Positions 1-49,663 of a DNA stretch of 64,000 nucleotides are shown here, piece by piece. The stretch comes from Klebsiella phage vB_KpnP_PW7. The translations under genes were made by a program, and so were the position numbers. The stretch is from sequence record PQ409239.1, one strand, 5' to 3'. Under the pieces are notes generated by a model that was given only the letters and a program-made list of their open reading frames with translations, made no database searches and was not told where the DNA came from. Every line of letters starts with the position of its first letter. Within the stretch, counting starts at the first letter, position 1.

Positions 1-357
1 CTGCAAATAGTGAAGCTTACTGCTATTACTACGACTACTTACTTAGCCAAGTACTTGCATCTAAAGGATGGAACCAGTGATAGCATGAGATTATATTACT
101 TATCAGGAGAGGGTAACCTATACGTATCCCAGGGTATTAAGTGGACCTGGCATGTAGGAAACAACCCTAACGTTCCTGTCTATGTTCACCCAGAGTTAGA
201 CTTCTACTGGATAGCGGGAGAGTGCTTACTCAGGAATAAATCAGTCAACCTTATCAAGCTGGAACCAGGAAGCTTAGTCTCAGATGTATCCGGCCCATGT
301 TACTTCTTAGCAGAGCACGGTCATAAAGCAGAGCAATTGTTATATAGAACTAAATAG
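1..357 (+). CDS. hypothetical protein, probably 5'-partial (frame open to window edge)
   Basis: Frame is open upstream of the GTG at position 10; no recognisable motif. Confidence 0.35.
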   Translation: MQIVKLTAITTTTYLAKYLHLKDGTSDSMRLYYLSGEGNLYVSQGIKWTWHVGNNPNVPVYVHPELDFYWIAGECLLRNKSVNLIKLEPGSLVSDVSGPCYFLAEHGHKAEQLLYRTK

Positions 358-390
358 GAGGTCTATATGTATAACCTCCTAAATTTTTTC
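356..390 (+). terminator. rho-independent terminator
   Basis: Stem AGGAGGT/ACCTCCT, 11-nt loop, followed by AAATTTTTTC. Confidence 0.6.
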
Positions 391-584
391 ATTGGGATTA
401 TTATCTTATGTATGTACGAGTTAGGGCCTTATAGATAGTTACTCTGCTAATTTTCTTAACCAAAAAGTAGCTCATGTATGTACGGTTGCAGTGTATTGGT
501 GGGGCTACACCCCCTTACACTATGAGTACCCCCCCGGTACTTAGCTCTGCTATGTATGACCCTACCCCACCTTACACTGTACAC

Positions 585-597
585 GTTGCTCCGCAAC
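585..597 (+). promoter_or_regulatory. candidate N4-type vRNAP hairpin promoter (stem GTTGC/GCAAC, loop TCC)
   Basis: 5-bp GC-rich stem with 3-nt loop whose centre is C on the coding strand (G on the template); followed by CTATGG; sits in a repeat-rich intergenic region. Confidence 0.35.
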
Positions 598-640
598 CTA
601 TGGACATGTCGTCCATATCACTCAACCTTGGAGCTATACA

Positions 641-964
641 ATGACTACTACTGCATCTGTACGTATGACTGCTGGAACTTTACTCGGTACAGTAAATGAA
701 GCAGCAACTACTGTAGCTGATACCTTTGGTACTGCTACTAAAGCTGTAGGTATGCTTAACCGTTATGTCACTAAGATGTCTGACAAACAGATTATCCGTG
801 ACAAACTGGAAATGCATGAATTCACAGCGAAGCTGGTAGAAGAAACAGCTATGCAAGAAGCTGTAAGACAGAAAACTATCCTGGAATTCTGCAAAGATGA
901 GCAGAATGGTGAACTCTATGCTTCTGCATATGACCGTTTAACCAAAATCCTGTCTAAAGACTAA
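641..964 (+). CDS. hypothetical early protein
   Basis: 107-aa ORF following an ORF-free region. Confidence 0.5.
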   Translation: MTTTASVRMTAGTLLGTVNEAATTVADTFGTATKAVGMLNRYVTKMSDKQIIRDKLEMHEFTAKLVEETAMQEAVRQKTILEFCKDEQNGELYASAYDRLTKILSKD

Positions 965-971
965 ATCAAAA

Positions 972-1000
972 TTGGCACTCTTCGGGGTGCCAAATTCTTT
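972..1000 (+). terminator. possible weak intrinsic terminator
   Basis: TTGGCAC...GTGCCAA stem then ATTCTTT. Confidence 0.3.
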
Positions 1001-1077
1001 GAATCAGATAGTTCAACTATTTATTCAAAAAGTAGAAACAAAAACCAACTAATCCAACGGATAGTTAAGGAACAAAA

Positions 1078-1254
1078 ATGGCTAAAGCTTCCCTTTATAA
1101 ACTACAAAGGATTAAAGACGGGAAGTGGATAGATATGGGACCAATCCCAGGTATATCCACAAACAAAGACCTTACATATCATGAAGCTATATCATTAGCA
1201 GCAGATTACAAAGGTTTAACTGGTACTAAAAACTACCGTCACGCTAAACAATGA
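1078..1254 (+). CDS. small hypothetical protein (58 aa, below ORF-track cutoff)
   Basis: ATG preceded by AAGGAACAAAA; ends TGA at 1252-1254. Confidence 0.35.
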   Translation: MAKASLYKLQRIKDGKWIDMGPIPGISTNKDLTYHEAISLAADYKGLTGTKNYRHAKQ

Positions 1255-1264
1255 GGAAAACATA

Positions 1265-1393
1265 ATGCCTGACTTCCGTTGCATCAAGCAATACAAACCT
1301 AAGCAGTATAAGAAAGCTAAACCTATCAATGGAGAAACTTCATTGGAACGTTTTGTCAAACTATTCAATAACAAAGGTGACAATAATGCCTAA
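1265..1393 (+). CDS. small hypothetical protein (42 aa), begins MPDFRCIK
   Basis: ATG preceded by GAGGAAAACATA; N-terminus resembles the next ORF (MPKYVCIK). Confidence 0.3.
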   Translation: MPDFRCIKQYKPKQYKKAKPINGETSLERFVKLFNNKGDNNA

Positions 1394-1598
1394 GTATGTG
1401 TGTATCAAATCAAAGACTGAAGCTGTACCGGAAGGAACTGTAATCATAGCAACACCTACTGGAGCTGGCCGTATTGTATTACTACGTGACAGTGATTTAG
1501 TAGTAAGCGAATACAATGACATGCCTTACTTCCAACGTGGTCAGGAACTACCACTTACTGGGAGTTTGTGGCACTGGGAAGAATTAAAAACTGCCTAA
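1386..1598 (+). CDS. small hypothetical protein (70 aa)
   Basis: Internal Met of ORF 1329..1598 with RBS AAGGTGA; overlaps the previous small ORF by ATGCCTAA. Confidence 0.4.
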   Translation: MPKYVCIKSKTEAVPEGTVIIATPTGAGRIVLLRDSDLVVSEYNDMPYFQRGQELPLTGSLWHWEELKTA

Positions 1599-1602
1599 AA
1601 CC

Positions 1603-1619
1603 AAGACGCTCCGCGTCTT
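1603..1619 (+). promoter_or_regulatory. candidate N4-type vRNAP hairpin promoter (stem AAGACGC/GCGTCTT, loop TCC)
   Basis: Perfect 7-bp stem with 3-nt loop, no downstream T-tract; followed by ATGG; same architecture as 7392..7408. Confidence 0.45.
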
Positions 1620-1730
1620 ATGGATGATGTTATGCATCCAATCCTGTATGAAATCTTAACCTTTTGTTTGGGTGTTCTCACCGACAGAGGCACTCAGCAT
1701 AAACTTAATCAATTATCTGGAGAGTACAAA

Positions 1731-2126
1731 ATGGCTATCGAATCCTTTGCAAAAACCTTTGGTAACAAATCTAACGCAGCTGCTGCAACGGCTGAATCTA
1801 AGCCTAAAGCTCAGTATTGGCTGAACATTGGCTATGTTGCTAATGAAGGCACTGAAGATGAGAAATTCATCTCTCTGCCCACGGGTATTCCACTGGATAC
1901 CCAGGAGCATCTGCCGACTAACAGCAGCAATGCTGACTTCCGTGCACTTCGTTGTGCTCAGAACGACCTGCTGGACCAGCTCATGGACTTTGCTAAAGAC
2001 CTGGAACCAGGTGCTGAAGGTATCATTCAGCTGCAAGTTCAACTTCGTCGTGTGAAAGCACCGGAAGCAGATATCCCTGCTGAAGAGAATAAGTATGCAC
2101 GTACTCTGTCTTTCGTAAGCAAGTAA
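1731..2126 (+). CDS. hypothetical early protein
   Basis: Start moved to Met38 of ORF 1620..2126 (RBS GGAGAG), because the upstream ATG overlaps the hairpin at 1603..1619. Confidence 0.45.
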
Positions 2127-2135
2127 ACGTGCATT

Positions 2136-2166
2136 GGGACTCCCTACGGGGAGTCCTTTTATTTTT
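2136..2166 (+). terminator. rho-independent terminator
   Basis: GGGACTCCC tacg GGGAGTCC followed by TTTTATTTTT. Confidence 0.7.
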
Positions 2167-2270
2167 AACCGACGATAAACTAAGTTTAACTTTTAAGTCC
2201 TTTTCGACGAAGAGGGGATAAAAGCTAACCGTAATTTCGAGCAGCTAACTTAGAAGAAGGAGTAAGCAAG

Positions 2271-2573
2271 ATGCGTACATTATGTAACCGTTTTAACCCA
2301 CAGAAGTTAATCGCTATGACCAGCTTGTATGGTAGTGGTATGGGCTTTGCCAAACGCTGGCAGGTATCTGTATCAGATGACCGGGGTCGTTGTTATGACC
2401 ATTACTTTGTAGCTAAGCCTACTCGTAAACAGATTCGTAAACTCCACAAAGTGCGTAAGCACTACCTACCTCGTAAATGCTACGAGTGTGGCAAACGAAT
2501 CAAACTGGGAGATGAGTTTTCCTGGGATGACCTTAACTATGCTCACACTAACTGCATTGGAGCCAAGAAATGA
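2271..2573 (+). CDS. hypothetical protein with C-terminal Cys/His cluster (CYECGK...HTNC)
   Basis: 100-aa ORF; possible zinc-binding motif. Confidence 0.45.
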   Translation: MRTLCNRFNPQKLIAMTSLYGSGMGFAKRWQVSVSDDRGRCYDHYFVAKPTRKQIRKLHKVRKHYLPRKCYECGKRIKLGDEFSWDDLNYAHTNCIGAKK

Positions 2574-2908
2574 ACTATCAACAAATCATCCTTAACTTCC
2601 TTAAAGCATACAAAGCATGGGTAGAGGCAGGTGCACCTAAGCACGAGATATTTCATAAAGAGCACGGCTTGTGTACTAACCTGAACAACTATGCTCGTAG
2701 CATCTATGCAGATGACGAAGACACTGTATGGTACATCTCAGATGAGCTAGTAACTATGTTCAGAATGGATGGGTTAAGTGCTTTGATTCCATTTAACCAC
2801 CCTGAAAAGGGACAGCCTATTTACTCCAATGAAGTACATCATGAAAACCCATGGCGTATGCAGTGGGTTGCTAAAACTATCAGCAAACTAGAAGGAGAGA
2901 CAAAATGA
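2570..2908 (+). CDS. hypothetical protein, tandem paralog A
   Basis: 112 aa; shares LKAYKxWVEAG.PKH, HGLC.NL and EVHHEN.WR..WV with the next ORF. Confidence 0.55.
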   Translation: MNYQQIILNFLKAYKAWVEAGAPKHEIFHKEHGLCTNLNNYARSIYADDEDTVWYISDELVTMFRMDGLSALIPFNHPEKGQPIYSNEVHHENPWRMQWVAKTISKLEGETK

Positions 2909-3243
2909 GCAACATGTACATTATCCTATTGTTCCTGAAAGCCTATAAAGAATGGGTAGAAGCTGGTGTACCTAAGCATGCATACTTTGACCCTACTCAT
3001 GGGCTGTGTAGTAACCTGGACCGCTTTGTCTTAAATACCTACCATGTAGGTGGCAACCGTTTAATATCGATAGGGGACAGTTTATGCTATCTATTTAAAG
3101 AAGATGGCTTAAGTGACATATTACCATTTAATAAAACGTCACTTGGTCAGCCTCGCTACATTCATGAGGTTCACCACGAGAACCTATGGCGTATTAAGTG
3201 GGTAAATGACACCATTACCAAACTTGAAGGAAAATTCAAATGA
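2905..3243 (+). CDS. hypothetical protein, tandem paralog B
   Basis: 112 aa; paralog of 2570..2908; 4-nt ATGA overlaps. Confidence 0.55.
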   Translation: MSNMYIILLFLKAYKEWVEAGVPKHAYFDPTHGLCSNLDRFVLNTYHVGGNRLISIGDSLCYLFKEDGLSDILPFNKTSLGQPRYIHEVHHENLWRIKWVNDTITKLEGKFK

Positions 3244-3431
3244 ATCCTAATGCTGTTCCACTAGGAACCAAGGTAGTACTTGTAGTATTGGTTGTAGCAG
3301 CAATCATTGGTGTATTTGCTGTTACTGGTCCCATTGGTGGACTACTATTCTTTGCTTTCCTGACCTACTCAGTATTAAACAAAGCACCACGTAAGGATGT
3401 TAACTCACGTGGTGACCAGGGAGACTTCTAA
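3240..3431 (+). CDS. small membrane protein (2 TM)
   Basis: 63 aa, hydrophobic VVLVVLVVAAIIGVFAV...LLFFAFLTYSVL. Confidence 0.45.
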   Translation: MNPNAVPLGTKVVLVVLVVAAIIGVFAVTGPIGGLLFFAFLTYSVLNKAPRKDVNSRGDQGDF

Positions 3432-3641
3432 TGGGACCATTGGAATCACAGATGTATATCTGGGCAATTATATGGCTAGTAATAGCATTACTGGTAGCAC
3501 TAGCCTTCTACATTACAGAGGATTAACTAGTGACATACAGTCTTAGATGGTGGCTTATATCCTACTGGCAATCAATGCAGATATATAGCACAGGTCTTAA
3601 CTTCGAACAGAAGTACCGATTCATACAGTATGTAGTCAAAG

Positions 3642-3848
3642 TTGGAGCTAACAATGCGTAAATCATTAATCATGGGAACCAAAGAAGATGTGCTCACGTC
3701 TACTAGACTCCGTAACAAAAATGAACAGAGTAACCGCTATACTAAACAAGCTAATACTATGGCAGTGCACAATACTGGTAATACTGTGTCACCTGTTGGT
3801 ATTAGTAAGCGAACTATTGTGACCTTCAATCACCCGTGCATTAGCTAA
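3642..3848 (+). CDS. hypothetical small protein
   Basis: ORF followed by a terminator. Confidence 0.3.
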   Translation: MELTMRKSLIMGTKEDVLTSTRLRNKNEQSNRYTKQANTMAVHNTGNTVSPVGISKRTIVTFNHPCIS

Positions 3849-3853
3849 TATAA

Positions 3854-3885
3854 GAGAGTCCTTCGGGACTCTTTTTATTTTGTTT
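3854..3885 (+). terminator. rho-independent terminator
   Basis: GAGTCC ttcg GGACTC followed by TTTTTATTTTGTTTTT. Confidence 0.7.
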
Positions 3886-3923
3886 TTCAGATAGAGATAT
3901 TCAGGAGATAGTTATAGATAACC

Positions 3924-4232
3924 ATGAACGAGTTAATTCAAATTGAACCAACAAGGTCTGCTATATCTGACCGTAATGTACGCATTCACTATCCTATGCC
4001 TTTGCATAATCCCTTTAAATCAAACGAGCGAGTTACAGTAGCTGAATCACTATTAGCTTATGAAGCTTGGCTACGTAACCGCCTGATTTCAGGGGATAAA
4101 CTGATAGTTGCTGAAATGACTCGTATTATCGAGTTATTACAGGATGGCACAAGTAAACCAGTAGGCTTAATCGGATATGCTGGTGAAATAGACGTAATCC
4201 GTAAAATTATCAGTGAGGTGCTTAATCAATGA
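3924..4232 (+). CDS. hypothetical protein
   Basis: 102-aa ORF translationally coupled to the next gene. Confidence 0.45.
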   Translation: MNELIQIEPTRSAISDRNVRIHYPMPLHNPFKSNERVTVAESLLAYEAWLRNRLISGDKLIVAEMTRIIELLQDGTSKPVGLIGYAGEIDVIRKIISEVLNQ

Positions 4233-4585
4233 AACTAATCGTAGCTGGTGGAAGAGATTTTGCTAATACTGGGTTAATGATTGAAGCCTTAACTAAATTA
4301 GTTGAGGAAAACAAAATAGATTCAAATCCGGAATTAGTATGTGGTATGGCTCGTGGTGCTGATATGCTTGCATATAGCCTATGGGCTAACCACAATATGA
4401 AAATCTATACATTCCCGGCAGATTGGAAAACTCATACAAGAAGTGCTGGTTATATTCGCAATGCAGAAATGGGTAATTTTGCAGATGTGCTTGTTGCCTT
4501 CTGGGATGGTAAGTCCAGAGGAACCAAGCACATGATTGAATATATGCAAAAGCTTGGAAAACCTACTCACGTAATAGGATACTAA
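4229..4585 (+). CDS. SLOG-family (DUF2493/YspA-like) Rossmann-fold protein
   Basis: Motifs VAGGRDF and GMARGADMLA, typical of SLOG/DprA-like nucleotide-binding domains. Confidence 0.45.
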   Translation: MKLIVAGGRDFANTGLMIEALTKLVEENKIDSNPELVCGMARGADMLAYSLWANHNMKIYTFPADWKTHTRSAGYIRNAEMGNFADVLVAFWDGKSRGTKHMIEYMQKLGKPTHVIGY

Positions 4586-4586
4586 T

Positions 4587-4811
4587 ATGTCAGCCGAAAT
4601 CGTAGATAAACGAAATATGGAGTTGGTACCTGCTTCTGTATTAAAGCAAGGTGACCACATAATTGACCAGTTTAAAAATGTACTGGTTGTTACCAACAAC
4701 AGTAAAAACTATATGAACTGTACTTCTATTTCTACAGGAGAACCATTTACATTTTCTTCTGACAAATTAGTACAACAAGTTCATTTAGTAGTCTCGGTGC
4801 ACTTAATATGA
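4587..4811 (+). CDS. hypothetical protein
   Basis: 74-aa ORF in an operon-like array. Confidence 0.35.
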   Translation: MSAEIVDKRNMELVPASVLKQGDHIIDQFKNVLVVTNNSKNYMNCTSISTGEPFTFSSDKLVQQVHLVVSVHLI

Positions 4812-5086
4812 AGATAATTACCTTCCCTACTCATAGAGTTATTTTCTATATGGAACAAGAAATTGAAGTTCCATTGTGGGCAAGGTATGTAGCTGCATAT
4901 CCAGGTAATTATGGCAAGTTAGTATCTTTAATAGGATTTGCCAATAAGCCTCGTGTAACTAAGAATGGAGTATGGCTCATACCTAAAGTATTCAAAGACC
5001 GTCAACAAGAGGAAATAGGCGTTATCAGACACTCTGATATTAACAAAACCAACTTTCATAAAACGCTACAAGGCCCATTCAAATGA
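4808..5086 (+). CDS. hypothetical protein
   Basis: 92 aa; ATGA overlap with the preceding gene. Confidence 0.4.
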   Translation: MKIITFPTHRVIFYMEQEIEVPLWARYVAAYPGNYGKLVSLIGFANKPRVTKNGVWLIPKVFKDRQQEEIGVIRHSDINKTNFHKTLQGPFK

Positions 5087-5403
5087 AACAAATAGCTATT
5101 ATCCATGACGTAGGGTATGCAGATATTGACAAAATGATGAAGTCCATAGATTACGTAAGTAATTACAGTAAAACATTTGATGGAGACTTCTTACTGCATA
5201 TTCACAAAGACTCAGCATTACTGCCTATTATTGAAGGCTCAGGACTTCCATATAAAGCAGTGGATGAGTTCATTGAAGAACCAGATGTGATGATTGCATT
5301 CTCTACCTGGGATGAGGGTACATTCGCTAAGTCTTCATTAATGAAACAATGGATGGCACGTAAGCCCGTATATGCATTTCAATTAGCTAAGGAGGCTCCA
5401 TGA
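5083..5403 (+). CDS. hypothetical protein
   Basis: 106 aa; coupled overlaps on both sides. Confidence 0.4.
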   Translation: MKQIAIIHDVGYADIDKMMKSIDYVSNYSKTFDGDFLLHIHKDSALLPIIEGSGLPYKAVDEFIEEPDVMIAFSTWDEGTFAKSSLMKQWMARKPVYAFQLAKEAP

Positions 5404-5801
5404 AAGTAATTAAATTGGGTGATAACACTAATGCTTTACTTGGCGTAGCAACCTGCCCAATAGTAATTATTAATAAACACCATGGCAAACAAGGTGAATA
5501 TATTGGGCGAGGTTCCCCATTAGGTAATCCTTACTCACATATGGAGGGTACCAAAGCCCAATTTAAAACAAAAACCAGAGAGCAAGCAATCGAACTCTAC
5601 AGAGTATGGCTCAATGAGCAAATAGCTAACAACAATCCTGCTGTATTAGCTGAACTCAATCGCCTTGGTAATAAAGCCATTGACGACAAAGGGCTGACCT
5701 TACAGTGCTTCTGTTACCCGAAACCGTGCCATGGTGAGGTGATTAAAGAGAAGCTTGTACAGGCTATGTACACTTACTTTGAGGAGCATCCAAATGGCTA
5801 A
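5400..5801 (+). CDS. DUF4326-family protein
   Basis: Motif YIGRGSPLGNPY close to the N-terminus as in DUF4326; 133 aa. Confidence 0.45.
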   Translation: MKVIKLGDNTNALLGVATCPIVIINKHHGKQGEYIGRGSPLGNPYSHMEGTKAQFKTKTREQAIELYRVWLNEQIANNNPAVLAELNRLGNKAIDDKGLTLQCFCYPKPCHGEVIKEKLVQAMYTYFEEHPNG

Positions 5802-6138
5802 TAAAGCTATTAAGCATCCCCAACTGTGGGTTATACGGCATATGCCGTCAGGTAAATGCATACCTGAACCCAGCTCTGTAGGGGAATCCCGTTATACCTG
5901 GGTAGAACCAAGTGATACAGGCATACCTCGACTGTTCCGTAGTGAGGACTCAGCCAAACGAGCATTAACTCAATGGCTTAGAGGCAGACACCATCTGGAA
6001 ACTGATATAGAGGATGCTTGCGAATGGGGCAAATCCTACGAAGTAGTGGTTGGTACCTACGCAGAGCCTGTATCTACCCGCGAAAGGGCAGAAATGGAAG
6101 TAGTACCCGTATCCTTACATACAAGCAATGAGGAGTAA
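5794..6138 (+). CDS. hypothetical protein
   Basis: Start at the ATG overlapping the upstream stop (ATGGCTAATAA), RBS GAGGAG. Confidence 0.4.
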   Translation: MANKAIKHPQLWVIRHMPSGKCIPEPSSVGESRYTWVEPSDTGIPRLFRSEDSAKRALTQWLRGRHHLETDIEDACEWGKSYEVVVGTYAEPVSTRERAEMEVVPVSLHTSNEE

Positions 6139-6346
6139 TAGTATGTTAGCTAAAGCAGGTACACGTAAAGACTATGTTCGTAAAGAACTTAAGTTCCAGC
6201 ACGAAGGTAAGGAGTACGTAGTAGTAATCCAATGTACCAATAGGAAGCTGAAAGAGGCTGAAAATAACGCAACTTTTAGTTGTGGTGCAAAATTAAATTC
6301 ATGCGAACTGTTCGATATGACAACTTATAGGAAATCCAATAAATGA
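6128..6346 (+). CDS. hypothetical protein
   Basis: 72-aa ORF. Confidence 0.35.
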   Translation: MRSNSMLAKAGTRKDYVRKELKFQHEGKEYVVVIQCTNRKLKEAENNATFSCGAKLNSCELFDMTTYRKSNK

Positions 6347-6540
6347 GTAACAAAGTATGTACCTGTGGTAAAGGCTATGTATCCCGCTGGGATAACCAAT
6401 GTGGTAAATGCCGTACTAATCGTCAGAACAAACAGCACTCTTACATTCTGAGTCATGACTACCTTTGGGTAGGCGTTGATATGAATGATGAGCAAGCTGT
6501 ATTGGCTCACTATAAAGAACTCAGAAGGACTCTCAAATGA
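6343..6540 (+). CDS. small Cys-rich (zinc-ribbon-like) protein
   Basis: CTCGK...CGKC motif. Confidence 0.4.
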   Translation: MSNKVCTCGKGYVSRWDNQCGKCRTNRQNKQHSYILSHDYLWVGVDMNDEQAVLAHYKELRRTLK

Positions 6541-6917
6541 AAGAGGTATTTGTATTCGGTAGTAACCTCGCTGGTATCCATGGTGCTGGTGCTGCTAAGA
6601 CTGCATATAAGAAGCATGGCGCTCGCTGGGGTATGGGCGTTGGTCACTATGGTTGCAGCTATGCTATCCCAACCAAAGACCAGCACATCAAGACCATGGC
6701 CTTAGAGGACATCAGAACCTTCGTAGAAGGCTTTATCATCTATGCAGCCTCACACCCAGAATGGGACTTTAAAGTCACCAGAGTGGGTTGTGGCCTAGCA
6801 GGATTGGATGATGCTGTTATGGCATCTATGTTCAAACATGCAACTGGTAACTGTTCATTCGACCTGGCATGGCAAAGCTATCTGGGTGATGAACATACCT
6901 ACTGGGGAACTTTCTAA
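6537..6917 (+). CDS. hypothetical protein with Gly-rich motif FGSNLAGIHGAGAAK (Rossmann/macro-like?)
   Basis: 126 aa; motif resembles nucleotide/ADP-ribose binding loops but family not assigned. Confidence 0.4.
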   Translation: MKEVFVFGSNLAGIHGAGAAKTAYKKHGARWGMGVGHYGCSYAIPTKDQHIKTMALEDIRTFVEGFIIYAASHPEWDFKVTRVGCGLAGLDDAVMASMFKHATGNCSFDLAWQSYLGDEHTYWGTF

Positions 6918-7117
6918 TGACCAAACAAGAAAGGAATTTAAACGCTGCCTGGGGTGTTTATATTCATGGGCGTCTTCAGTTAATTGAAGAGGCTATTCGT
7001 GCAGGCAAACCAGATGCTGAAATAGTAGATGTACTCTTTGGCGAGAGCAGCATCAATGTAGCCAAACAAACCATTTCAGCAGCAAGAGCATATATTGCGA
7101 GGGAAAACGATGAGTAG
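6917..7117 (+). CDS. hypothetical protein
   Basis: 66-aa ORF. Confidence 0.35.
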   Translation: MTKQERNLNAAWGVYIHGRLQLIEEAIRAGKPDAEIVDVLFGESSINVAKQTISAARAYIARENDE

Positions 7118-7388
7118 CTATGAAGAATTATATGGTGCTCACGTAGTTTACAAGAGCAAGGTATTTGCTGAACTTTATTCAACACTTCAGAGCATGATTA
7201 AAGCTCGAACCAAAGCAGGTTACGTTAACGGTATTACCCACATAGTAGTGCCTGAACAATTTGCTAATGTGCTTTGGATAAGGGATACACCTTGCATCAA
7301 AGTAAAAGTATGGCCCTCTAAGGGACGTTATGTAAACACACAGTATATCCCTGGCAGACTGTATATCAGTTTTGAAACTAAGCGTTAA
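7110..7388 (+). CDS. hypothetical protein
   Basis: Start at second Met (RBS GAGGGAAAA). Confidence 0.4.
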   Translation: MSSYEELYGAHVVYKSKVFAELYSTLQSMIKARTKAGYVNGITHIVVPEQFANVLWIRDTPCIKVKVWPSKGRYVNTQYIPGRLYISFETKR

Positions 7389-7391
7389 GTA

Positions 7392-7408
7392 AAGCAGCTC
7401 CGCTGCTT
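7392..7408 (+). promoter_or_regulatory. candidate N4-type vRNAP hairpin promoter (stem AAGCAGC/GCTGCTT, loop TCC)
   Basis: 7-bp stem, 3-nt TCC loop, no T-tract, followed by GTGG; lies 30 nt upstream of the RNAP1 gene. Confidence 0.45.
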
Positions 7409-7438
7409 GTGGTAATTAAACTAATTGAGGAATAAGCG

Positions 7439-8254
7439 ATGACTACCAAGTTAGAACATCAGATGCAACTCGAACTGTTATTCAGCAAGAACCAACTCAT
7501 GCCTCGTATGAGGAAAGAGTTCGAAGAATCAGAAGATATCGACTTTGTCGGTTTCTTCAAAAGCATTGATATCGACCCTAAGTTTGGTATCGATGCAATG
7601 GTACAAATGGCTCTGCACAAACGAGCCGACCTACCTACCTTAGTAGGAAGCCTGTGGCATCACTATGACAATGCACAGGATGTAGCAGACGCCTTATTTA
7701 AAATGGCGTCAGAAGACTGCTTTGACTATGACCCTAAGATTGACAAGTTCATTGTCCGTTACGGGATTAGTCAGGATGTACAGCTGGAACTGGAAGCATT
7801 CCAGTATCCACTACCAATGGTAGTTCAGCCTAAAGCTGTTACCTGCAACCGAGATACCGGTTACTTAGTAAGTAAGGGCAGCATTATCCTGAAAAAGAAC
7901 CATACGGAAGATGATGTGTGCTTAGACCACATCAACCGTATGAACTCTATAAAGCTATCCATCAACTGGGACGTAGCCAAGATGGTTAAGAATAGCTGGA
8001 GAAACCTGGATAAATGCAAAGAAGGTGAAACTCGTGAAGAGTATCAGAAACGAGTAAAAGCCTTTGAGAAGTATGACCGAACAGCTCATGAAGTAATGCA
8101 GCTGTTGACCCAAGAAGGAAATGAATTCCATCTGACGCACAAGTATGACAAACGTGGTCGTACTTACTCACAGGGCTATCATATCAACTATCAGGGTACT
8201 AGCTGGAACAAAGCAGTACTCGAATTTGCAGATAAGGAATATGTAAATGAATAG
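7439..8254 (+). CDS. phage RNA polymerase II small subunit (N4 gp15-like RNAP1)
   Basis: 271 aa, immediately upstream of the RNAP2 gene carrying T7-like palm motifs; size and position match N4 gp15. Confidence 0.6.
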   Translation: MTTKLEHQMQLELLFSKNQLMPRMRKEFEESEDIDFVGFFKSIDIDPKFGIDAMVQMALHKRADLPTLVGSLWHHYDNAQDVADALFKMASEDCFDYDPKIDKFIVRYGISQDVQLELEAFQYPLPMVVQPKAVTCNRDTGYLVSKGSIILKKNHTEDDVCLDHINRMNSIKLSINWDVAKMVKNSWRNLDKCKEGETREEYQKRVKAFEKYDRTAHEVMQLLTQEGNEFHLTHKYDKRGRTYSQGYHINYQGTSWNKAVLEFADKEYVNE

Positions 8255-8543
8255 CAAACAGAAAATGTTCTACCCACTGGTAGCAAAAGAAGGTGGCATG
8301 GGCCTGCTCACTGTAGGCGAGGACGGTACCTTACTCTACTCAGCAATTGATACTAAAACGGGTAATCCCGTAACTGTGGTGCTGTACTTCAACGAACAGA
8401 CCAGCAGTACTCTGCTTAATACCATTGAGGAACTGGCTACTATCCAGAAGAAGTATGCAGAATCTCGTGTAGACAATGAACCAGCTGAAGAATCATTCCA
8501 TGCGATGCTGGAAGCATTAAAACCATCCGGTAAACCTAACTAA
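8247..8543 (+). CDS. hypothetical protein between RNAP subunit genes
   Basis: 98-aa ORF. Confidence 0.4.
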   Translation: MNSKQKMFYPLVAKEGGMGLLTVGEDGTLLYSAIDTKTGNPVTVVLYFNEQTSSTLLNTIEELATIQKKYAESRVDNEPAEESFHAMLEALKPSGKPN

Positions 8544-8589
8544 TTAATCCATTATGCAGGGCATAAGCCCAAGAAGCAGGAGAAACAAA

Positions 8590-9804
8590 ATGCAAACTTT
8601 TACTGGCCGTGAATACCTGAAAATTGATATTGCTAACAACTATGGCCTGGACAAGAAAGACTGGGATGAGCGTATTGCATGGTTCGACCGCAACGAGCAC
8701 AACTTAGGTGCTCTGGTTAAAGAAGCAGATGAACCAGCACTGTTCTATGCAGGTGTTAACGCATGGAAGGCTGTACAAGCTGGTGAGCCTATTGGCTATC
8801 CTATTGCACTGGATGCTACGTCATCTGGCTTACAGATTCTGGCATGTCTGACTGGTGACCGTCAGGCTGCTGAACTGTGCAACGTAGTGAATTACTACGA
8901 AGACGGTAAGCCTAAACGTCGTGACGGCTATACAGTCATCTATAAGGCTATGCTGGAAGTACTGGGTGAGTCCGGGCGTATTAAGCGTGACGACTGTAAG
9001 CAGGCAATCATGACTGCTCTGTATGGCTCAGAAGCAATGCCTAAACAGGTATTCGGTGAGGGTATCTTGCTCAAAGTGTTCGAGAACATTATGAGTGAGA
9101 AGGCACCAGCAGTATGGGAACTCAACAAGTTCTGGCTGCAATGTGGCAACCCTGAAGCTACTGAATACCACTGGGTATTGCCAGACGGCTTCAACGTACA
9201 TATCAAAGTAATGGTACCAGAAGTACAGACAGTACATTTCCTGAATAAGCCTTACGACGTTGTTCGTATGGTTCAGGGAGTGGAAGAGAAGACACGTATG
9301 TTGTCTGCTAACACCACTCACAGTCTGGATGGCATGGTAGTACGTGAACTGATTCGTCGTTGTAACTATGACCCAGAGCTGGTGAAGTATGTTAAGCAGC
9401 TGTGCTACGGTGTAAACGTAGACCAGGTAACTATAGAGGGCAATGCCGAGATGGTAGAGCAACTGTGGACTTACTATAAGGACACTGGCTACCTCTCTGC
9501 ACGTATCTTTGACTACCTGGATGCAGGCACAATTCACTTAGTAGACCGTACAGCCATTATAGAACTGATTGAGTCACTGCCAGCTAAACCGTTTAAGGTT
9601 CTGTCTGTGCATGATTGCTTCCGTTGCCTGCCTCAGTATGGCAATGACCTGCGTCGTCAGTACAACATTCAATTAGCTACTATTGCTAAGTCCGACCTGC
9701 TGTCATTCATCATGTCTCAAGTACTGGGTGAAAAGGTTACCATTGGTAAGCTGGACCCAGACCTGTGGAAAGACATTGGAGAAACAGAATATGCACTCTC
9801 ATAA
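8590..9804 (+). CDS. phage RNA polymerase II large subunit (N4 gp16-like RNAP2, T7-like single-subunit RNAP catalytic part)
   Basis: DATSSGLQILACLTGD matches T7 RNAP motif A (DGSCSGIQHFSAM); LSVHDCFRC matches motif C (HDSFGT); start at Met13 with RBS AGGAGAAACAAA. Confidence 0.8.
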   Translation: MQTFTGREYLKIDIANNYGLDKKDWDERIAWFDRNEHNLGALVKEADEPALFYAGVNAWKAVQAGEPIGYPIALDATSSGLQILACLTGDRQAAELCNVVNYYEDGKPKRRDGYTVIYKAMLEVLGESGRIKRDDCKQAIMTALYGSEAMPKQVFGEGILLKVFENIMSEKAPAVWELNKFWLQCGNPEATEYHWVLPDGFNVHIKVMVPEVQTVHFLNKPYDVVRMVQGVEEKTRMLSANTTHSLDGMVVRELIRRCNYDPELVKYVKQLCYGVNVDQVTIEGNAEMVEQLWTYYKDTGYLSARIFDYLDAGTIHLVDRTAIIELIESLPAKPFKVLSVHDCFRCLPQYGNDLRRQYNIQLATIAKSDLLSFIMSQVLGEKVTIGKLDPDLWKDIGETEYALS

Positions 9805-9951
9805 CTTACCAATCCCAAAACTATACGCATACATCAGAGGACAGTATCGATTTAAAGCTCCTGGTGTATGCACTAGACTATGGACAGATGAAAATTGGAT
9901 TGCCTTTATTGATTCATACAAAGGTTGGACTGTAAAAGTATGTTAAAACTT

Positions 9952-9987
9952 AGCCACTCCTTCGGGAGTGGCTTATTTTTTTGTTTG
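9952..9987 (+). terminator. rho-independent terminator
   Basis: AGCCACTCC ttcg GGAGTGGCT followed by TATTTTTTTGTTT. Confidence 0.75.
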
Positions 9988-10029
9988 AATTCATAATAGC
10001 TAGGCAATATTGCCTAAGAGGATAGATAC

Positions 10030-10545
10030 ATGCCAACTTTATACGCTAGTTTAAAACAAGAAACCGGTGAAGTAGATGTTAAGTTTACCAATGCAGTAGG
10101 CGAGGGATTCGTTGCAATTGGTTCATTTGTTCACCCAGATGCAACCTACCCAGATAGCTACGTTATTTATCACGGAGTACGTGACCTGCTTTATAAACGC
10201 AAAGCCTCTGACCCAAGTCAGGTAGGATTCTGGCCGGATAACATCACGGATATGCAGAGCATTACCATTAAAGCAGAGGAACCAGTAGCGGTTACAGGTG
10301 TAACTCTTAATAAGAGCACCAGCACCGGCCAAGTTGGTGGAAACGAAACGTTGGTTGTTACTGTAGCACCAACCGACGCTACTGATAAATCAGTAGTATG
10401 GAGCACCTCAGATGCTACTAAAGCCACGGTAGACCAAACCGGTAAAGTAGTACTGACCGGGGTAGGTACTGTAACCATCACTGCAACCACTAAAGATGGT
10501 GGCTACACAGCCAGCTGTGAGTACACAGTGACTGAAGCTGCATAA
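10030..10545 (+). CDS. Ig-like (Big_2-type) domain protein
   Basis: C-terminal VTGVTLNKST...VVWSTSD..TVDQTGKVVLTGVGTVTITATTKDGGYTASCEYTV resembles bacterial Ig-like group 2 domains. Confidence 0.5.
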   Translation: MPTLYASLKQETGEVDVKFTNAVGEGFVAIGSFVHPDATYPDSYVIYHGVRDLLYKRKASDPSQVGFWPDNITDMQSITIKAEEPVAVTGVTLNKSTSTGQVGGNETLVVTVAPTDATDKSVVWSTSDATKATVDQTGKVVLTGVGTVTITATTKDGGYTASCEYTVTEAA

Positions 10546-10603
10546 GCTAGTTTTATAGTTTTCTTGGGGTTATTAACCTCGCCATAAACAATCCTTATCT
10601 TTT

Positions 10604-10632
10604 GCCCACCCTTGCGGTGGGCATTTTTTTGG
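10604..10632 (+). terminator. rho-independent terminator
   Basis: GCCCACC cttgc GGTGGGC followed by ATTTTTTTGG. Confidence 0.75.
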
Positions 10633-10683
10633 CTATTATGTAATTCTTTATATGACCATCCACCCTTAACTAAGTAGGTATAT

Positions 10684-10953
10684 ATGCGTAAGATTGCTTT
10701 AATCGGATGTGGTGCAGTAATTGGCCTGTTGGCTCTGACTGCCCACTATGTAGTGGAACGTCTGTTCGGTTTCAACCTGCCGGACTTCACGGTATACATC
10801 GCTGCTGCGATTGCAGCCCCTGTATTCGGGGTAGTGCAATTTGACCATAAGGCGTTTAGCCGAGCCTTCGCTGAAAAATCTAAGCTGGTCATCGACCGCC
10901 TAGGTTTTCGAACGTGTGGGGTCGGTTGTCTAAGCCGACCAGAATACATGTAA
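10684..10953 (+). CDS. membrane protein (2 TM)
   Basis: Hydrophobic segments IALIGCGAVIGLLALTA and VYIAAAIAAPVFGVV. Confidence 0.45.
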   Translation: MRKIALIGCGAVIGLLALTAHYVVERLFGFNLPDFTVYIAAAIAAPVFGVVQFDHKAFSRAFAEKSKLVIDRLGFRTCGVGCLSRPEYM

Positions 10954-10976
10954 ACAAACACTACATTCGCAAGTAA

Positions 10977-11012
10977 AAAACCCCGCCATTGTGCGGGGTT
11001 TTTGTTTTTTTG
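10977..11012 (+). terminator. rho-independent terminator
   Basis: AAAACCCCGC cattgt GCGGGGTTTT followed by TGTTTTTTTGG. Confidence 0.75.
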
Positions 11013-11238
11013 GTTTTCATACTTTGGAGCAAAAACGTTGAAACTTACTAATTCTCAATCTGTTTTTCTTAAAATGGTTAAGTCTGGTACTGCACCACGT
11101 GCACTGTCCAACAAAACAGCCCGTGCTCTTAACAAGATGGGTTTGATTAAACCCAACGCTATGTACGGCTGGATTCTTACCACTGCTGGCTTACAAGCCC
11201 TCGGAGAGTTAAGCAATGCAGGAGAAAAACAGGCGTAA
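11002..11238 (+). CDS. hypothetical protein (start uncertain; internal Met at 11065 possible)
   Basis: ORF begins inside the preceding terminator, so a downstream start is likely. Confidence 0.3.
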   Translation: MFFWFSYFGAKTLKLTNSQSVFLKMVKSGTAPRALSNKTARALNKMGLIKPNAMYGWILTTAGLQALGELSNAGEKQA

Positions 11239-11566
11239 GACCCTGATAGATAGAATCCAGTCAAGAGTTAAGCTGCAAGACTTAGGGCATACCATCAATG
11301 GTCAACCCAGCCTGTGCCATATCTGGACTGGTTCTCATTCTGGAAATGGTAGAGGTGGGCAATATGGTCGTATTTCCGTAAATGGAATTACTTCTGCTAC
11401 CCACATCGTAGTGTTTACCCACTATCACGGTTATATACCGTGCAGGATGCAGGTAGACCACCTGTGTAATAACCGACTGTGCTGTAACCCTGAACATCTG
11501 GAATTGGTAACTCACCAGGAGAACCAGAAGAGAAGGGCTGCACGTAAGAAAGGAACCAAGAAATGA
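11216..11566 (+). CDS. HNH homing endonuclease
   Basis: CHIW.G......YGRI..NG....HI..........MQVDHLCNNRLCCNPEHLELVTHQEN matches the HNH_3 (AP2-type) motif. Confidence 0.7.
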   Translation: MQEKNRRKTLIDRIQSRVKLQDLGHTINGQPSLCHIWTGSHSGNGRGGQYGRISVNGITSATHIVVFTHYHGYIPCRMQVDHLCNNRLCCNPEHLELVTHQENQKRRAARKKGTKK

Positions 11567-11802
11567 TAACTCCTGACCAGAGTGCTATGGTTATGGACGA
11601 CTTAGACGTACAGTATTTTATTCATGGTTATCACGACAATGTTCAAATTAACTGCCAAACTTTGGCAGAAAAAACCAATGCACTAATAAGGTGTGATAGG
11701 AAACTGCAACAATTTGAGCAACATAATTGGAATATGTCGTCTACTCACAGAAGAGATAGCATACACCTAAAACTACTCAAATTGTGGGGAACCAGAAAAT
11801 GA
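11563..11802 (+). CDS. hypothetical protein
   Basis: 79-aa ORF coupled to the HNH stop. Confidence 0.35.
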   Translation: MITPDQSAMVMDDLDVQYFIHGYHDNVQINCQTLAEKTNALIRCDRKLQQFEQHNWNMSSTHRRDSIHLKLLKLWGTRK

Positions 11803-11990
11803 AAGAAGATTGCTTTTTTGCATTCGTGGCTGGTGGTGTCATTGGTGTGATAGTCATGGGTTTACTCATGTCCCATGTTGGACCTAACTCCAAAGCCAAA
11901 GTTGATGCTCGTAAAGCTGAATGTGAGCTTAATATTCCACGTAACCAAAACTGCGTAATGCAGTTTGTACCAGAAAAGGTAAAACAATGA
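11799..11990 (+). CDS. small membrane protein (1 TM)
   Basis: ATG start (MKEDCFFAFVAGGVIGVIVMGLLM), RBS GGGGAA; upstream GTG start rejected. Confidence 0.4.
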   Translation: MKEDCFFAFVAGGVIGVIVMGLLMSHVGPNSKAKVDARKAECELNIPRNQNCVMQFVPEKVKQ

Positions 11991-12172
11991 AATTATTTTT
12001 AGCACTCTTTTCAATGCTCGTCATTTCACTCGCCGGTTTGTCTTGGGTTTTCAGTGAACCTCAAAACATCATGCAGCAAATCTATTTTGCTGTTAAGTGC
12101 TCAACTACCATGATTTGGATGTATACCATCCATTCCATCTGGATTCGTTATACGAATAGTAAAGGCAAATAA
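11987..12172 (+). CDS. small membrane protein
   Basis: MKLFLALFSMLVISLAGLSWVF, 61 aa. Confidence 0.4.
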   Translation: MKLFLALFSMLVISLAGLSWVFSEPQNIMQQIYFAVKCSTTMIWMYTIHSIWIRYTNSKGK

Positions 12173-35388: not shown

Positions 35389-35460
35389 GGTGAGTTAGCT
35401 AATTGGTGAAGCGGCTGACTGTTAATCAGTGACAGAGTGGTTCGAGTCCACTACTCACCG
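35389..35460 (+). tRNA. tRNA-Asn (anticodon GTT), CCA encoded
   Basis: Acceptor GGTGAGT/ACTCACC, anticodon loop CTGTTAA, T-arm AGTGG-TTCGAGT-CCACT, then GCCA. Confidence 0.8.
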
Positions 35461-35467
35461 CCATATA

Positions 35468-35539
35468 GGGCAGTAGGCGATGTAGGGTTATGCGCCACGA
35501 CACAGGTCGTGAACATCGGTTCGAGTCCGATACTGTCCA
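35468..35539 (+). tRNA. tRNA-like element with non-canonical D/anticodon arms (possible pseudo-tRNA)
   Basis: Acceptor GGGCAGT/ACTGTCC (one G-U), T-arm ATCGG-TTCGAGT-CCGAT, CCA encoded; hand-folding finds only a 6-nt loop (CACAGG) between CACGA/TCGTG. Confidence 0.35.
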
Positions 35540-35546
35540 CCACTAT

Positions 35547-35620
35547 CGGAGTTTAGCTCAGTTTGGCAGAGCACCTGGTTTGGGACCAGGGGGTCGTAGG
35601 TTCAAGTCCTACAATTCCGA
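35547..35620 (+). tRNA. tRNA-Pro (anticodon TGG), CCA encoded
   Basis: Acceptor CGGAGTT/AATTCCG, D-arm GCTC-AGTTTGGCA-GAGC, anticodon loop TTTGGGA, T-arm GTAGG-TTCAAGT-CCTAC. Confidence 0.85.
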
Positions 35621-35631
35621 CCAAATTCTAT

Positions 35632-35705
35632 TGGGGTATCGCCAAGTTGGTTAAGGCATCGGACTTTGATTCCGACATTCGCAAGTTCGAATCTTGCTAC
35701 CCCTG
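35632..35705 (+). tRNA. tRNA-Gln (anticodon TTG), CCA encoded
   Basis: UGGGGUA 5' end as in E. coli tRNA-Gln; anticodon stem TCGGA/TCCGA, loop CTTTGAT; T-arm GCAAG-TTCGAAT-CTTGC; position 1-72 is a U-U mismatch. Confidence 0.8.
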
Positions 35706-39161: not shown

Positions 39162-39192
39162 AAAAGCCCCTCTATTGAGGGGCTTATTTTTT
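39162..39192. terminator. bidirectional rho-independent terminator at the convergent strand switch
   Basis: AAGCCCCTC tatt GAGGGGCTT flanked by AAAA on the left and TTTTTT on the right; separates the forward-strand genes from the reverse-strand vRNAP stop. Confidence 0.75.
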
Positions 39193-42100
39193 AATTTACC
39201 AGGTTATGCCATGGGTTAAGGCTAGGTGCTCGTAAGCCCTGACCAAACCCGAAGGAATAATCCAGTCTGCCATCTGCCATCAGGCTAAACATGTTGTCCT
39301 GAATAGGCAGACCTACATTACCAAACATGGTAGGAGCAGGAACCACGGTAGCAATCAGCGAGTGCACTGGGTTGTTACGAATCATGGATACTGCAACCTT
39401 AGCTGAACGAATCTTAAAGTTGTAGAACCACATAAGACCCATGCTTTCCATATAACCACGGAAACGACCAGGTAGACGGTCATAGTTAACAAACTCTTCC
39501 GTAACACGACCAAGTGCTTCTGCTTTGCCCATCTTCTTACGCTTAGTCAGGTCATCATAGATGATTGCTTTAGCGATAAAGTCAGAGTACTCAACAGTTT
39601 TCTGAATACCTTGGAACAGTGCAGTATCCTTGGTAATGAGTGCGTAACGACCAGCAGTACGTAAACCTTTAGGCAGCTTGTTAGCCAGCTGGTCAATGTA
39701 CTGGTGCAGCTTACCTTCGGTAATGAGAATCTCATCACGACCGATACCAGAGTCAGCGATAGAAGAGAACTCACCACGTTCAATCAGAGGCCAAATCGAC
39801 ATACGCTTGTGGCTGTCAGTAATAGACTGAATCTCAGCTTCAAGCTTACGTGACTGGTTCGGATTGGTAGAGGCACGTAATTCCGCTTCTGCTTCAATCT
39901 GACGAATACGGCTTTTAAGATACTGGTTAATCTCACTGGTTTTACGAGGAAGGTTAACAGCAATATCCTTAACCGGTACACCACGACCAATCATCTGATA
40001 GATGTTAGCCAGGAAGTTAACAGCAGGAACCACCATAGACTTAACAACAATCAGAGTCTTGGCATCCTTAACAGCACTCTGAATAGTATTCTCAGCATTC
40101 ATCATGTAACGGTAAGCTTTGTTACCGAATGCACCAATGAACATCTTCTTAACGGTGTCCAGAGTTTCATCATTCCAACGACTATTACCAGTCCATGCAT
40201 CACCTACAGAAGCAGAGCGATAACCGAATGCATCATTTAGCATGTCACGGCGTACCCACAACTGATTCTCACCAAAGAGACTTTCAGCCTTTTTACGAGT
40301 CTCAAGGTTCATCAGCTTAACAGCATCAGACAATACAGCATCGTTAGTCTGGCCAAATACATTGACGTACTGAGACTGGTTAGAAGAAGACTCTTTCAGG
40401 TCAGCTTCATACATGTCATGCAGACGTTCAATGAGTGCATCGTTGTAAGCCTGTGCTTTAGCCTCTTCTACCTGACGACCACGCCATACGCCAACCATCT
40501 TAGCGAAGTGGTTATCCTGGTTCAGATGCTTAAGCATATCCGGGTTAACAGAACGCTCATACGCTACCACCATGCCCTTATCATCGTAGATTGGTAACAG
40601 AGGCTCATCACCACGCTCACCACGTGCCATAGCCTTCTGGATGCGTTTTACAGTGTGCATATCTGTAATACGCCCAGCTACCATAGTGTTCATGGTGAAG
40701 CCAGTTCCTACGTCTACTCCATTAGCAGTGTCACGAACGTTTTGCAGGATACCCTGACTAAACGGAGCACGTGCAGCCACAGGACTGAAGTAGTAACCAC
40801 GGCTGGCTTTATTAGTGTCAGCTGAGGAACCAGTGTAAGTACCTACACGAACGTAGGAACGCTCATTGAGTAACCCAAAGTCACCATCTTCAGCTACGAT
40901 GAGGTTAACGCCCTGTTGCTGCATAGTAGGGATGTAACCTTTGTAGCTGTTCAGTTTGGTACGTGGGTCACTGTTAGCCTTACGTACTTCTTCCACACGC
41001 TGGCCTACCATGTAAGACAGAGAGAAATCCATACCTTCAACTTCGCTTTGAGCCAGGGAAGAGAGAATATCCCGGTCAGCCTTGTTCATGGTTTCCAGTG
41101 CATAGAGAGTAATCAGCTTATCCAGTGCAGCTACATCTACAGTTGATTTAGCAGCAGTACGTTCACCGAGCAAACGACTAATAGCGTATGCGTTACGGAG
41201 TAAGTTATTACCTACCACACCGGTAATCATGTACTTAGCTAACTGCTTAGACTTACGTTCAATGAGTCCCCAGTTACGACCAGCTTGGGCAGACAAGCTT
41301 GCTTCCAGCTTATTGATTTCTGCATCAACAAGTTTGCTGTCAGACAGCAGGTCACGGATATCACCCATGCTCATGGTTTCACGCAAAACAGCAAGGTCAG
41401 TTTTACCCAAACCAGTGTGCATTGCTCCCCACTCTTCTTTGCTGAGTTCACGGGTAAACTTCTCAGCAATAATAGTTGGAAGGTTTTCACGGAACTGCTG
41501 ACGGTCTTGTTGAATCTGAGAACGAACAGCTTTAATCATGTCGTAGACATTAGCGTTAGTCTTAGTACGACCAACAATATCGTTAACCAGGTCATGGAAA
41601 GGTTTCCATACTTTACCCTGGTTCATAGCAGCCATCACACCCTGTGCAACCTTCTCCCCGTTCTTCTCTGTGGCAACAGCAGCAACAAGCTGTGCAGCAT
41701 GTGCAGTAGCTTTGACCAGTGGATTACTGGTATTAGCTGCCACATCACGAGCACGGTCCAGAGTAGCATCAGCCAGACGCTCTACCCCATCAATCACATA
41801 CTGATTAGCACGGTCAATCATACTGCCAGTAGGGTTAGCTACTGAGTCATAGAACGACTCACGGTTAAGAGAAGCTTCCGTTATACGGTTAGTCAGTGCA
41901 TCAATGCTTTCTTGTACATTCTGAGACTTATTATCACCAGCCAGACGAGTATTAAGGGATTCCATTGCCTGAGTACCAGCATTGGTCAGGATATTGTCCA
42001 GAGTGTTATTCAGTTTAAGGTCAGCTTTAGGTACAGGCATCTTTTCCAATACAGCACGGAATTCATCGTTAACCATAGCCAGCCCCATGAACACAGGCAG

Positions 42101-49606: not shown

Positions 49607-49663
49607 AGGTTTCCTATTCAAACTTATATCTATTAGAGAACACACTATATACAAAGTGTGAGC

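Follow-up and report, generated by a model that had tools for sequence, protein, structure and literature searches.

Among the closest described counterparts of the elements considered here are the early promoters P1, P2 and P3 of coliphage N4, which have been proven biochemically and are recognized by the virion RNA polymerase (vRNAP) as a hairpin on the single-stranded template (PMC4496689). These promoters are conserved from -17 to +1 and contain a GC-rich heptamer, centred at -11, with inverted repeats on either side; the stem is 5-7 bp long, and its conserved bases are required whereas the variable ones are free as long as they remain paired (PMC4496689). On the N4 template strand, -10G and -12A make a sheared pair and the base at -11 is a purine; -11G stacks on W129 and bonds R119, K114 bonds -10G, D901 and R904 read -9C/-10G and -8G, and an intercalating hairpin melts two basal pairs of the 7-bp stem (PMC4496689). 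Gyrase-dependent extrusion, activation by the host single-stranded-DNA-binding protein (SSB) and rifampicin-resistant transcription have been established for N4 only (PMC4496689). The subject of the present analysis is a set of three short hairpins in Klebsiella phage vB_KpnP_PW7 (record PQ409239.1), of which a stretch of 64,000 nt, referred to below as the window, was analysed. Judged from sequence, these hairpins, designated P1-P3, are very probably the early promoters of an N4-like phage and orthologous to N4 P1, P2 and P3.

Three hairpins and their conservation

The predicted promoters are the following.

585-602, + strand: early promoter P1 (predicted), hairpin GTTGC-TCC-GCAAC (585-597), loop centre C591 (-11), predicted start G602
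1603-1622, + strand: early promoter P2 (predicted), hairpin AAGACGC-TCC-GCGTCTT (1603-1619), loop centre C1611, predicted start G1622
7392-7411, + strand: early promoter P3 (predicted), hairpin AAGCAGC-TCC-GCTGCTT (7392-7408), loop centre C7400, predicted start G7411

Each hairpin has a 3-nt loop, and the stems of P1, P2 and P3 are perfect over 5, 7 and 7 bp, respectively; DNA folding recovers all three, with the P2 fold at -6.9 kcal/mol (z = -3.65). All are intergenic, lie on the + strand within the leftmost 7.4 kb of the window and within ∼6.9 kb of the inferred left end of the genome, and precede the orthologues of N4 gp1, gp2 and gp15 (RNAP1, subunit 1 of the phage heterodimeric RNA polymerase, RNAPII). 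The coding-strand bases T(-12), C(-11), C(-10), G(-9) and C(-8) are common to P1-P3 and correspond to A, G, G, C and G on the template, where the loop reads GGA with a purine at its centre. The hairpins are followed directly by CTATGG (P1), ATGG (P2) and GTGG (P3), none of them by a T-tract, and in each case GG is found at exactly 11 and 12 nt past the loop centre, the first G being the predicted start. The initial annotation had reported these hairpins with their positions and sequences, their GC-rich perfect stems, central-C loops, lack of a T-tract and shared downstream motif, had placed them upstream of forward-strand genes with 30 nt between the third and the RNAP1 ATG (7439), and had likened them to the three vRNAP promoters of N4. 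Direct reading and a hairpin scan of the 64 kb bear this description out, the genes concerned are the orthologues named above, and the N4 record holds exactly three hairpins of this kind. P1-P3 contain all the sequence determinants described for recognition by N4 vRNAP (PMC4496689); these determinants, position and the presence in the window of a predicted cognate polymerase argue for the N4 vRNAP promoter architecture.

The 64 kb contain 120 perfect hairpins in which the loop is 3 nt and the stem at least 5 bp long, and the combination of a TCC loop with G-C closing pairs is found in P1-P3 alone, which are also the sole hairpins with a GCTCCGC core in the 64 kb. The heptamer GCTCCGC is not enriched in itself (3 copies in 64 kb, 3.01 expected); all three copies sit in perfect stems of at least 5 bp, with 3-5 extra complementary pairs on each side. 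Since the heptamer count is uninformative and the signal resides in the flanking complementarity, dinucleotide-preserving shuffles (n = 2000) were evaluated at the level of the hairpin. They contained a mean of 0.0485 GCTCCGC hairpins and in no case reached three (0/2000), and when GG was required as well, 11 nt past the loop centre, the mean fell to 0.004 hairpins per shuffle, compared with the 3 observed. Heptamers of the GCGNAGC mini-hairpin type show no enrichment in the window (11, with 14.4 expected).

When the criteria were relaxed to look for additional promoters on both strands (4 bp or more of stem, closing GC pair, pyrimidine loop), only weak 4-bp candidates came up, all of which were rejected: TAGC-TCT-GCTA (542-552) fails at -10G, CAGC-TTC-GCTG (825-835, - strand, within the gp1 coding sequence) has no GG at the start position, and those at 10252-10262 (- strand) and 44150-44160 were discarded as weak. 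The + strand core of the 825-835 hairpin, GCGAAGC, equals the N4 P1-type mini-hairpin, and the 825-835 hairpin is conserved in all Kaypoctavirus relatives; as GG is missing at its start position, this conservation probably reflects coding constraint.

In the N4 record, GTTGC-TTC-GCAAC (90-102) precedes gp1, AAGAAGC-TCC-GCTTCTT (557-573) precedes gp2 and AAGCTGC-TCC-GCAGCTT (4546-4562) precedes RNAP1. The N4 and window elements agree in their 5/7/7 bp stems, 3-nt loops, positions relative to genes and polymerase contact residues. They also have the core GC-TCC-GC (GCGGAGC on the template) in common, and the G at which N4 transcription starts, 11 nt past the loop centre, has its counterpart in the predicted start of each window element. 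They differ by one or two compensatory stem pairs (P2 AAGACGC in the window and AAGAAGC in N4; P3 AAGCAGC and AAGCTGC), by the P1 loop, which is TTC in N4 and TCC in the window such that -11 is A in the former and G in the latter, and by the bases at -2/-1 (AT or GT in the window, TT in N4). The N4 elements have been proven by experiment, whereas those of the window are predicted from sequence.

The window represents an N4-like Klebsiella phage of Kaypoctavirus, ∼92% identical to phi1_146050 and KP8; over its first 9 kb, identity is ∼91-92% to the Kaypoctavirus phages phi1_146050, K60PH164C1, JZBo1 and KP8 and ∼79%, patchily, to coliphage N4. In seven Kaypoctavirus records and SP5M, the hairpins stand ahead of the orthologues of gp1, gp2 and RNAP1 or of a small open reading frame (ORF) inserted in front of these, and a protein-anchored search located the P3 hairpin ahead of RNAP1 in every IMG/VR relative with an RNAP1 identity down to 73%. 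Absence or variability of the hairpins in relatives, which the initial annotation had named as the outcome that would speak against promoters, was not observed: every relative examined down to ∼73% RNAP1 identity has them, with compensatory stem changes. In relatives at ≤62% RNAP1 identity no GCTCCGC hairpin was detected within 600 nt upstream of RNAP1, and single-protein locus searches (RNAP1, RNAP2) reached few distant relatives; conservation is therefore shown just for relatives at the level of Enquatrovirinae.

Among these relatives, GG occurs at loop centre +11/+12 in 30 of 31 distinct promoter sequences, and the GC-TCC-GC core is constant. The outer stem takes at least nine sequences, all of them complementary, the 5′ arms AAGAAGC, AAGACGC, AAGATGC, AAGCTGC, AAGCAGC, AGGTGC, GGCTGC, ACATGC and GTTGC each being matched by its own 3′ arm. 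The coding-strand loop is TCC in every relative examined save for N4 P1 (TTC), and is never the complement GGA. A pair-count covariation test on the pooled promoters would have been circular, the set having been chosen for perfect stems, and was replaced by a scan with the stem left unspecified and by a heptamer census. The former, a collection scan that specified the core, the spacing and the P2 leader, gave 13 matches, in which stems of 5-7 bp were found in 10/10 N4-like contigs and stems of 2-3 bp in 3/3 unrelated contigs; in the latter, 64 of the 67 GCTCCGC heptamers in related loci proved to lie in perfect hairpins of at least 5 bp.

The number of hairpins in and around Kaypoctavirus is three or four per genome. 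Relatives with four hairpin promoters are L002 (KP8; 962-1246), L005 (2600-2878), L007 (2391-2690), L008 (1254-1531) and L009 (893-1168), and the extra hairpin is always located ahead of a small ORF inserted between P1 and gp2. KP8 and VLCpiP4a have a further inserted ORF between P3 and RNAP1. Promoter and ORF together look like a cassette subject to gain and loss.

The polymerase predicted to read these elements is encoded in the same window.

39191-49603, - strand: virion RNA polymerase gene, 71% identity to N4 vRNAP, predicted reader of P1-P3

The ORF as listed spans 39191-49654 (- strand; 3487 codons), with the N4-type start MSTFDRLAG at residue 18. Its product is 76% identical to N4 vRNAP in the mini-vRNAP domain and gives a full-length match to the solved N4 structures. 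Alignment shows that K114, R119, W129, K849, K850, D901 and R904 are conserved with respect to N4, as are the catalytic residues D559, D951 and Y678; the numbering of mini-vRNAP is offset by 997 from that of the full-length protein, a value confirmed by 12/12 review-listed contact or catalytic positions giving the expected N4 residue. The promoter bases and the residues predicted to read them are thus conserved together.

Predicted early transcription units and competing explanations

The genes and terminator-like sites associated with the three promoters are listed below.

641-964, + strand: orthologue of N4 gp1 (cofactor of middle transcription), 85% identity; first gene past P1
972-993, + strand: terminator-like GC hairpin, T-rich in its tail, past the gp1 orthologue
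1632-2126, + strand: orthologue of N4 gp2 (single-stranded-DNA-binding cofactor of RNAPII), 75% identity
2136-2157, + strand: terminator-like GC hairpin, then TTTTATTTTT, after the gp2 orthologue
7439-8254, + strand: RNAPII subunit 1 (RNAP1), orthologue of N4 gp15, 74% identity; first gene past P3
8590-9804, + strand: RNAPII subunit 2 (RNAP2), orthologue of N4 gp16, 74% identity; in the predicted P3 transcription unit
9952-9973, + strand: terminator-like hairpin and T-run past RNAP2, where the P3 unit probably ends

A further terminator-like hairpin with a T-run is found at 3852-3875. The P1 unit would comprise the gp1 orthologue and end at 972-993, the P2 unit would comprise the gp2 orthologue and end at 2136-2157, and the P3 unit would run through RNAP1, a small ORF and RNAP2 to end at 9952-9973. 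The ATG at 1632 lies 10 nt past the predicted P2 start and is equivalent to the ATG annotated for gp2 in N4 and KP8, whereas the mechanical ORF start (1620) is located upstream of the predicted transcription start; the start of the gp2 orthologue is therefore probably to be corrected to 1632. In several records the gp2 orthologue is named 'RNA polymerase 1 subunit A' (in KP8, L002, 1254-1748; in the window, 1632-2126), whereas gp2 of N4 binds single-stranded DNA and serves as a cofactor in the recruitment of RNAPII, without being a polymerase subunit (PMC4496689).

The predicted P1 and P2 transcripts both start at +1 with a stem-loop, GGAC-ATGTC-GTCC (602-614) and GGATG-ATGTTAT-GCATCC (1622-1639), respectively, and these are conserved in N4, SP5M and all Kaypoctavirus relatives. 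The AUG of the gp2 orthologue falls within the loop of the latter, 10 nt from the 5′ end, and lacks a Shine-Dalgarno sequence. No such 5′ stem-loop is present at P3 or at the extra promoters of relatives.

If the scheme worked out biochemically for N4 applies, the left genome end would enter the cell first, together with injected vRNAP, and supercoiling by host gyrase would extrude the inverted repeats as cruciforms. The template (-) arm, 5′-GC-GGA-GC-3′, would adopt the fold of a GNA mini-hairpin, which is unusually stable and contains a sheared G:A pair, whereas the weaker arm with the TCC loop would be melted by host SSB. On the single-stranded template hairpin, vRNAP would then read -11G, -10G, -9C and -8G and initiate with the G located 11 nt downstream of the loop centre, and the resulting transcripts, encoding gp1, gp2 and the two RNAPII subunits, would switch on middle transcription. 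The early-transcription scheme of N4 appears to have been carried over intact to this lineage of Klebsiella phages, and the annotation would gain three predicted early start sites, the revised start of the gp2 orthologue and three early transcription units.

Some points weigh against reading the hairpins as vRNAP promoters. Hairpin promoters are lacking for the ORFs at 1078-1598 and 2271-7388, which are located between a terminator-like site and the hairpin that follows it and would therefore depend on read-through or middle promoters for their expression. In the window vRNAP, K267, a lysine of the beta-intercalating hairpin that makes a non-base-specific contact, is replaced by N. Finally, the promoter sets of KP8 and of the window have both been predicted by similarity to N4.

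The hairpins could instead act at the level of the transcript, as terminators or as hairpins for RNA stability or processing at the end of the upstream genes. P2 and P3 begin 5 and 4 nt, respectively, past the stops of the upstream ORFs (1598 and 7388), and read-through RNA would be able to fold both hairpins, as expected for such elements. However, the T-tract is lacking, and P1-P3 are missing from a terminator scan that does find the sites at 972, 2136, 3852 and 9952; terminators need neither an invariant, strand-asymmetric loop nor GG at a fixed distance of 11 nt, and the equivalent N4 elements are biochemically proven promoters (PMC4496689), so that a purely transcript-level role is very unlikely. 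Equally small is the probability that the hairpins are promoters, but for RNAPII in middle transcription rather than for the injected vRNAP. This would have a precedent in phage LUZ7, in which the GC-rich hairpins that serve as middle promoters have loops of 3-4 nt and lie ∼15 nt ahead of the start site (PMC9163698). The window elements nevertheless precede the genes for RNAPII and its cofactors, which have to be expressed for RNAPII to exist at all; their N4 orthologues P1-P3 are used by vRNAP, and N4 middle promoters are AT-rich; and the vRNAP residues that contact exactly these bases are conserved.

Perfect intergenic inverted repeats ahead of genes would also be expected of palindromic operators, bound as duplex by a dimeric phage or host DNA-binding protein, but the outer arms vary provided that they remain complementary while the asymmetric heptamer is fixed, which is the signature of a folded single strand, and N4 structures show recognition of the single-stranded template hairpin (PMC4496689), leaving operators as an extremely improbable explanation. 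That the hairpins are chance palindromes without function, as the chance-level frequency of the heptamer might suggest, is refuted by the shuffle control and by their conservation, on one strand, in intergenic positions, in register with GG and with compensatory changes across genera, and its probability is negligible.

The RNAP2-upstream stem-loop and the genome ends

A fourth hairpin, located in the P3 unit, had been pointed out in the initial annotation alongside P1-P3.

8552-8570, + strand: fourth hairpin TTATGC-AGG-GCATAA (8552-8566), overlapping GGGC-ATAA-GCCC (8559-8570); outside the promoter set

The hairpin exists at 8552-8566 as described and does precede RNAP2, but its loop, folding and lack of conservation rule it out as an N4-type promoter. 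Its template loop is CCT, which puts a pyrimidine in place of the purine at -11 and provides neither -10G nor -12A; the opposite strand offers AGG instead of GGA as the loop, and transcription from it would be antisense. The minimum-energy DNA fold of this stretch is GGGC-ATAA-GCCC (8559-8570), and the fourth hairpin is missing in N4, KP8, phi1_146050, BaqKoxi and the SP5M group. At the position of 8559-8570, N4, KP8 and others have GAGCC-AATA-GGCTC or AGCC-AATA-GGCT, and the SP5M group has GGCTCTCCA-TAG-TGGGGAGCC. A consensus fold of eight sequences selects the 8559-8570 hairpin, with compensatory changes in all four pairs, although the alignment is short; the stem sequence varies between genera while complementarity is kept. 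The stem-loop and a conserved AAGANGC box that follows it occupy 8559-8577, 13-31 nt before the RNAP2 ATG, with the box just ahead of the ribosome-binding site. AAGAAGC and AAGACGC, two forms of this box, also constitute the 5′ arm of the P2 promoter stem, and the box may be the relic of a half-promoter or a coincidence.

The RNAP2-upstream stem-loop most plausibly acts at the level of RNA. A broader proposal, which must be considered doubtful, is that the 8559-8570 stem-loop, covarying across Enquatrovirinae, is an undescribed RNA-level element that sets the expression of RNAP2 relative to RNAP1, and that the vRNAP promoter is a portable 'early moron' module, given the apparent gain and loss of cassettes of hairpin promoter and small ORF in the P1-gp2 interval and ahead of RNAP1.

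Aligned to the window, the linear records of N4, KP8 and SP5M have their left ends at 495-503. KP8 has a direct terminal repeat of 404 bp, the left copy of which corresponds to window 495-898, and window 1-494 matches the unique right end of KP8. The window therefore derives from a circularly joined assembly in which 1-494 is right-end DNA, and P1 would be positioned ∼95 nt from the physical left end, inside the inferred terminal repeat. Since the equivalent of the KP8 repeat includes P1, along with the 5′ portion of gp1, virion DNA probably has a copy of P1 at either end. The ∼90 bp between the inferred left terminus and P1 (495-585) are conserved from N4 to SP5M, above many coding regions; CTACMCCMCCTTACACT occurs twice in them (505-521 and 562-578), and they include a C7 run. 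This segment may be a terminus, packaging or injection signal. The direct repeat TAKCTYATGTATGTACG occurs twice (402-418 and 468-484), spaced by 66 bp, in the right-end DNA just short of where the inferred left terminus is joined to it.

Sigma-70-like promoter matches are depleted in the early region (window 1-12000), with 15 compared with a shuffle mean of 28.1 (standard deviation 5.5), and terminator-like sites are enriched in the same segment (23; shuffle mean 7.9, standard deviation 3.0). Three clustered tRNA genes are located at 35389-35705 on the + strand, and an Rfam search of the window detected nothing but these. In one relative (L004, OY978778.1 61354-72594), sequence and deposited annotation do not lie in register, late structural genes (portal, tail spike), all flagged as pseudogenes, being placed over the early-gene region.

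Comparison with other known systems

The promoters described here are already known, in that matching sequences have been listed as putative early promoters of KP8 (PMC6950046). The KP8 GenBank record (MG922974) contains four 'early promoter' features, identified by comparison with N4 and given in Table 1 of that study as P1 ACGTTGCTCCGCAACCTATGGA, P2 AAGACGCTCCGCGTCTTATGGA, P3 GGGCTGCTCCGCAGCCTTTGGA and P4 AAGCAGCTCCGCTGCTTGTGGG (Viruses 2019, PMC6950046). Over the hairpin and start site, window P1, P2 and P3 match KP8 P1, P2 and P4, and the sole difference between KP8 P4 and window P3 is at the last listed base (GTGGG in KP8, GTGGT in the window). KP8 has the additional hairpin GGGCTGC-TCC-GCAGCCT, as an extra small ORF separates P2 from the gp2 orthologue, whereas in the window the AAGACGC hairpin directly precedes the latter. 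Because the mechanism has been worked out for N4 and the sequences have been listed for KP8, the window elements open no new question.

In the Pseudomonas phage LUZ7, early hairpin promoters have been mapped by ONT-cappable-seq, giving nine early start sites (PMC9163698). They resemble P1-P3 in having a stem of at least 4 bp, a conserved 3-nt loop, a preferred G start and early use by an injected vRNAP (PMC9163698), but belong to another genus, have another core and start 13-14 nt from the hairpin centre, compared with 11 nt at the three window sites.

At the level of DNA structure, the template core of P1-P3, GCGGAGC, falls in the family of d(GCGNAGC) mini-hairpins (Hirao), which are extra-stable by virtue of two G-C pairs and a sheared G:A pair and of which the N4 promoter is a natural example (PMC13037366), although this is a structural motif and not a class of promoter. 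The extra stability of GCGGAGC would account for a stable template arm opposite a TCC arm that SSB can melt, and thereby for the strand asymmetry of the element. The enzyme itself belongs to a family homologous to the T7-type single-subunit RNA polymerases, with which it shares a specificity loop, an intercalating hairpin and an upstream recognition element (PMC4496689); T7 promoters, however, are read as duplex from -17 to +6, whereas elements of the N4 type are read as a folded single strand.

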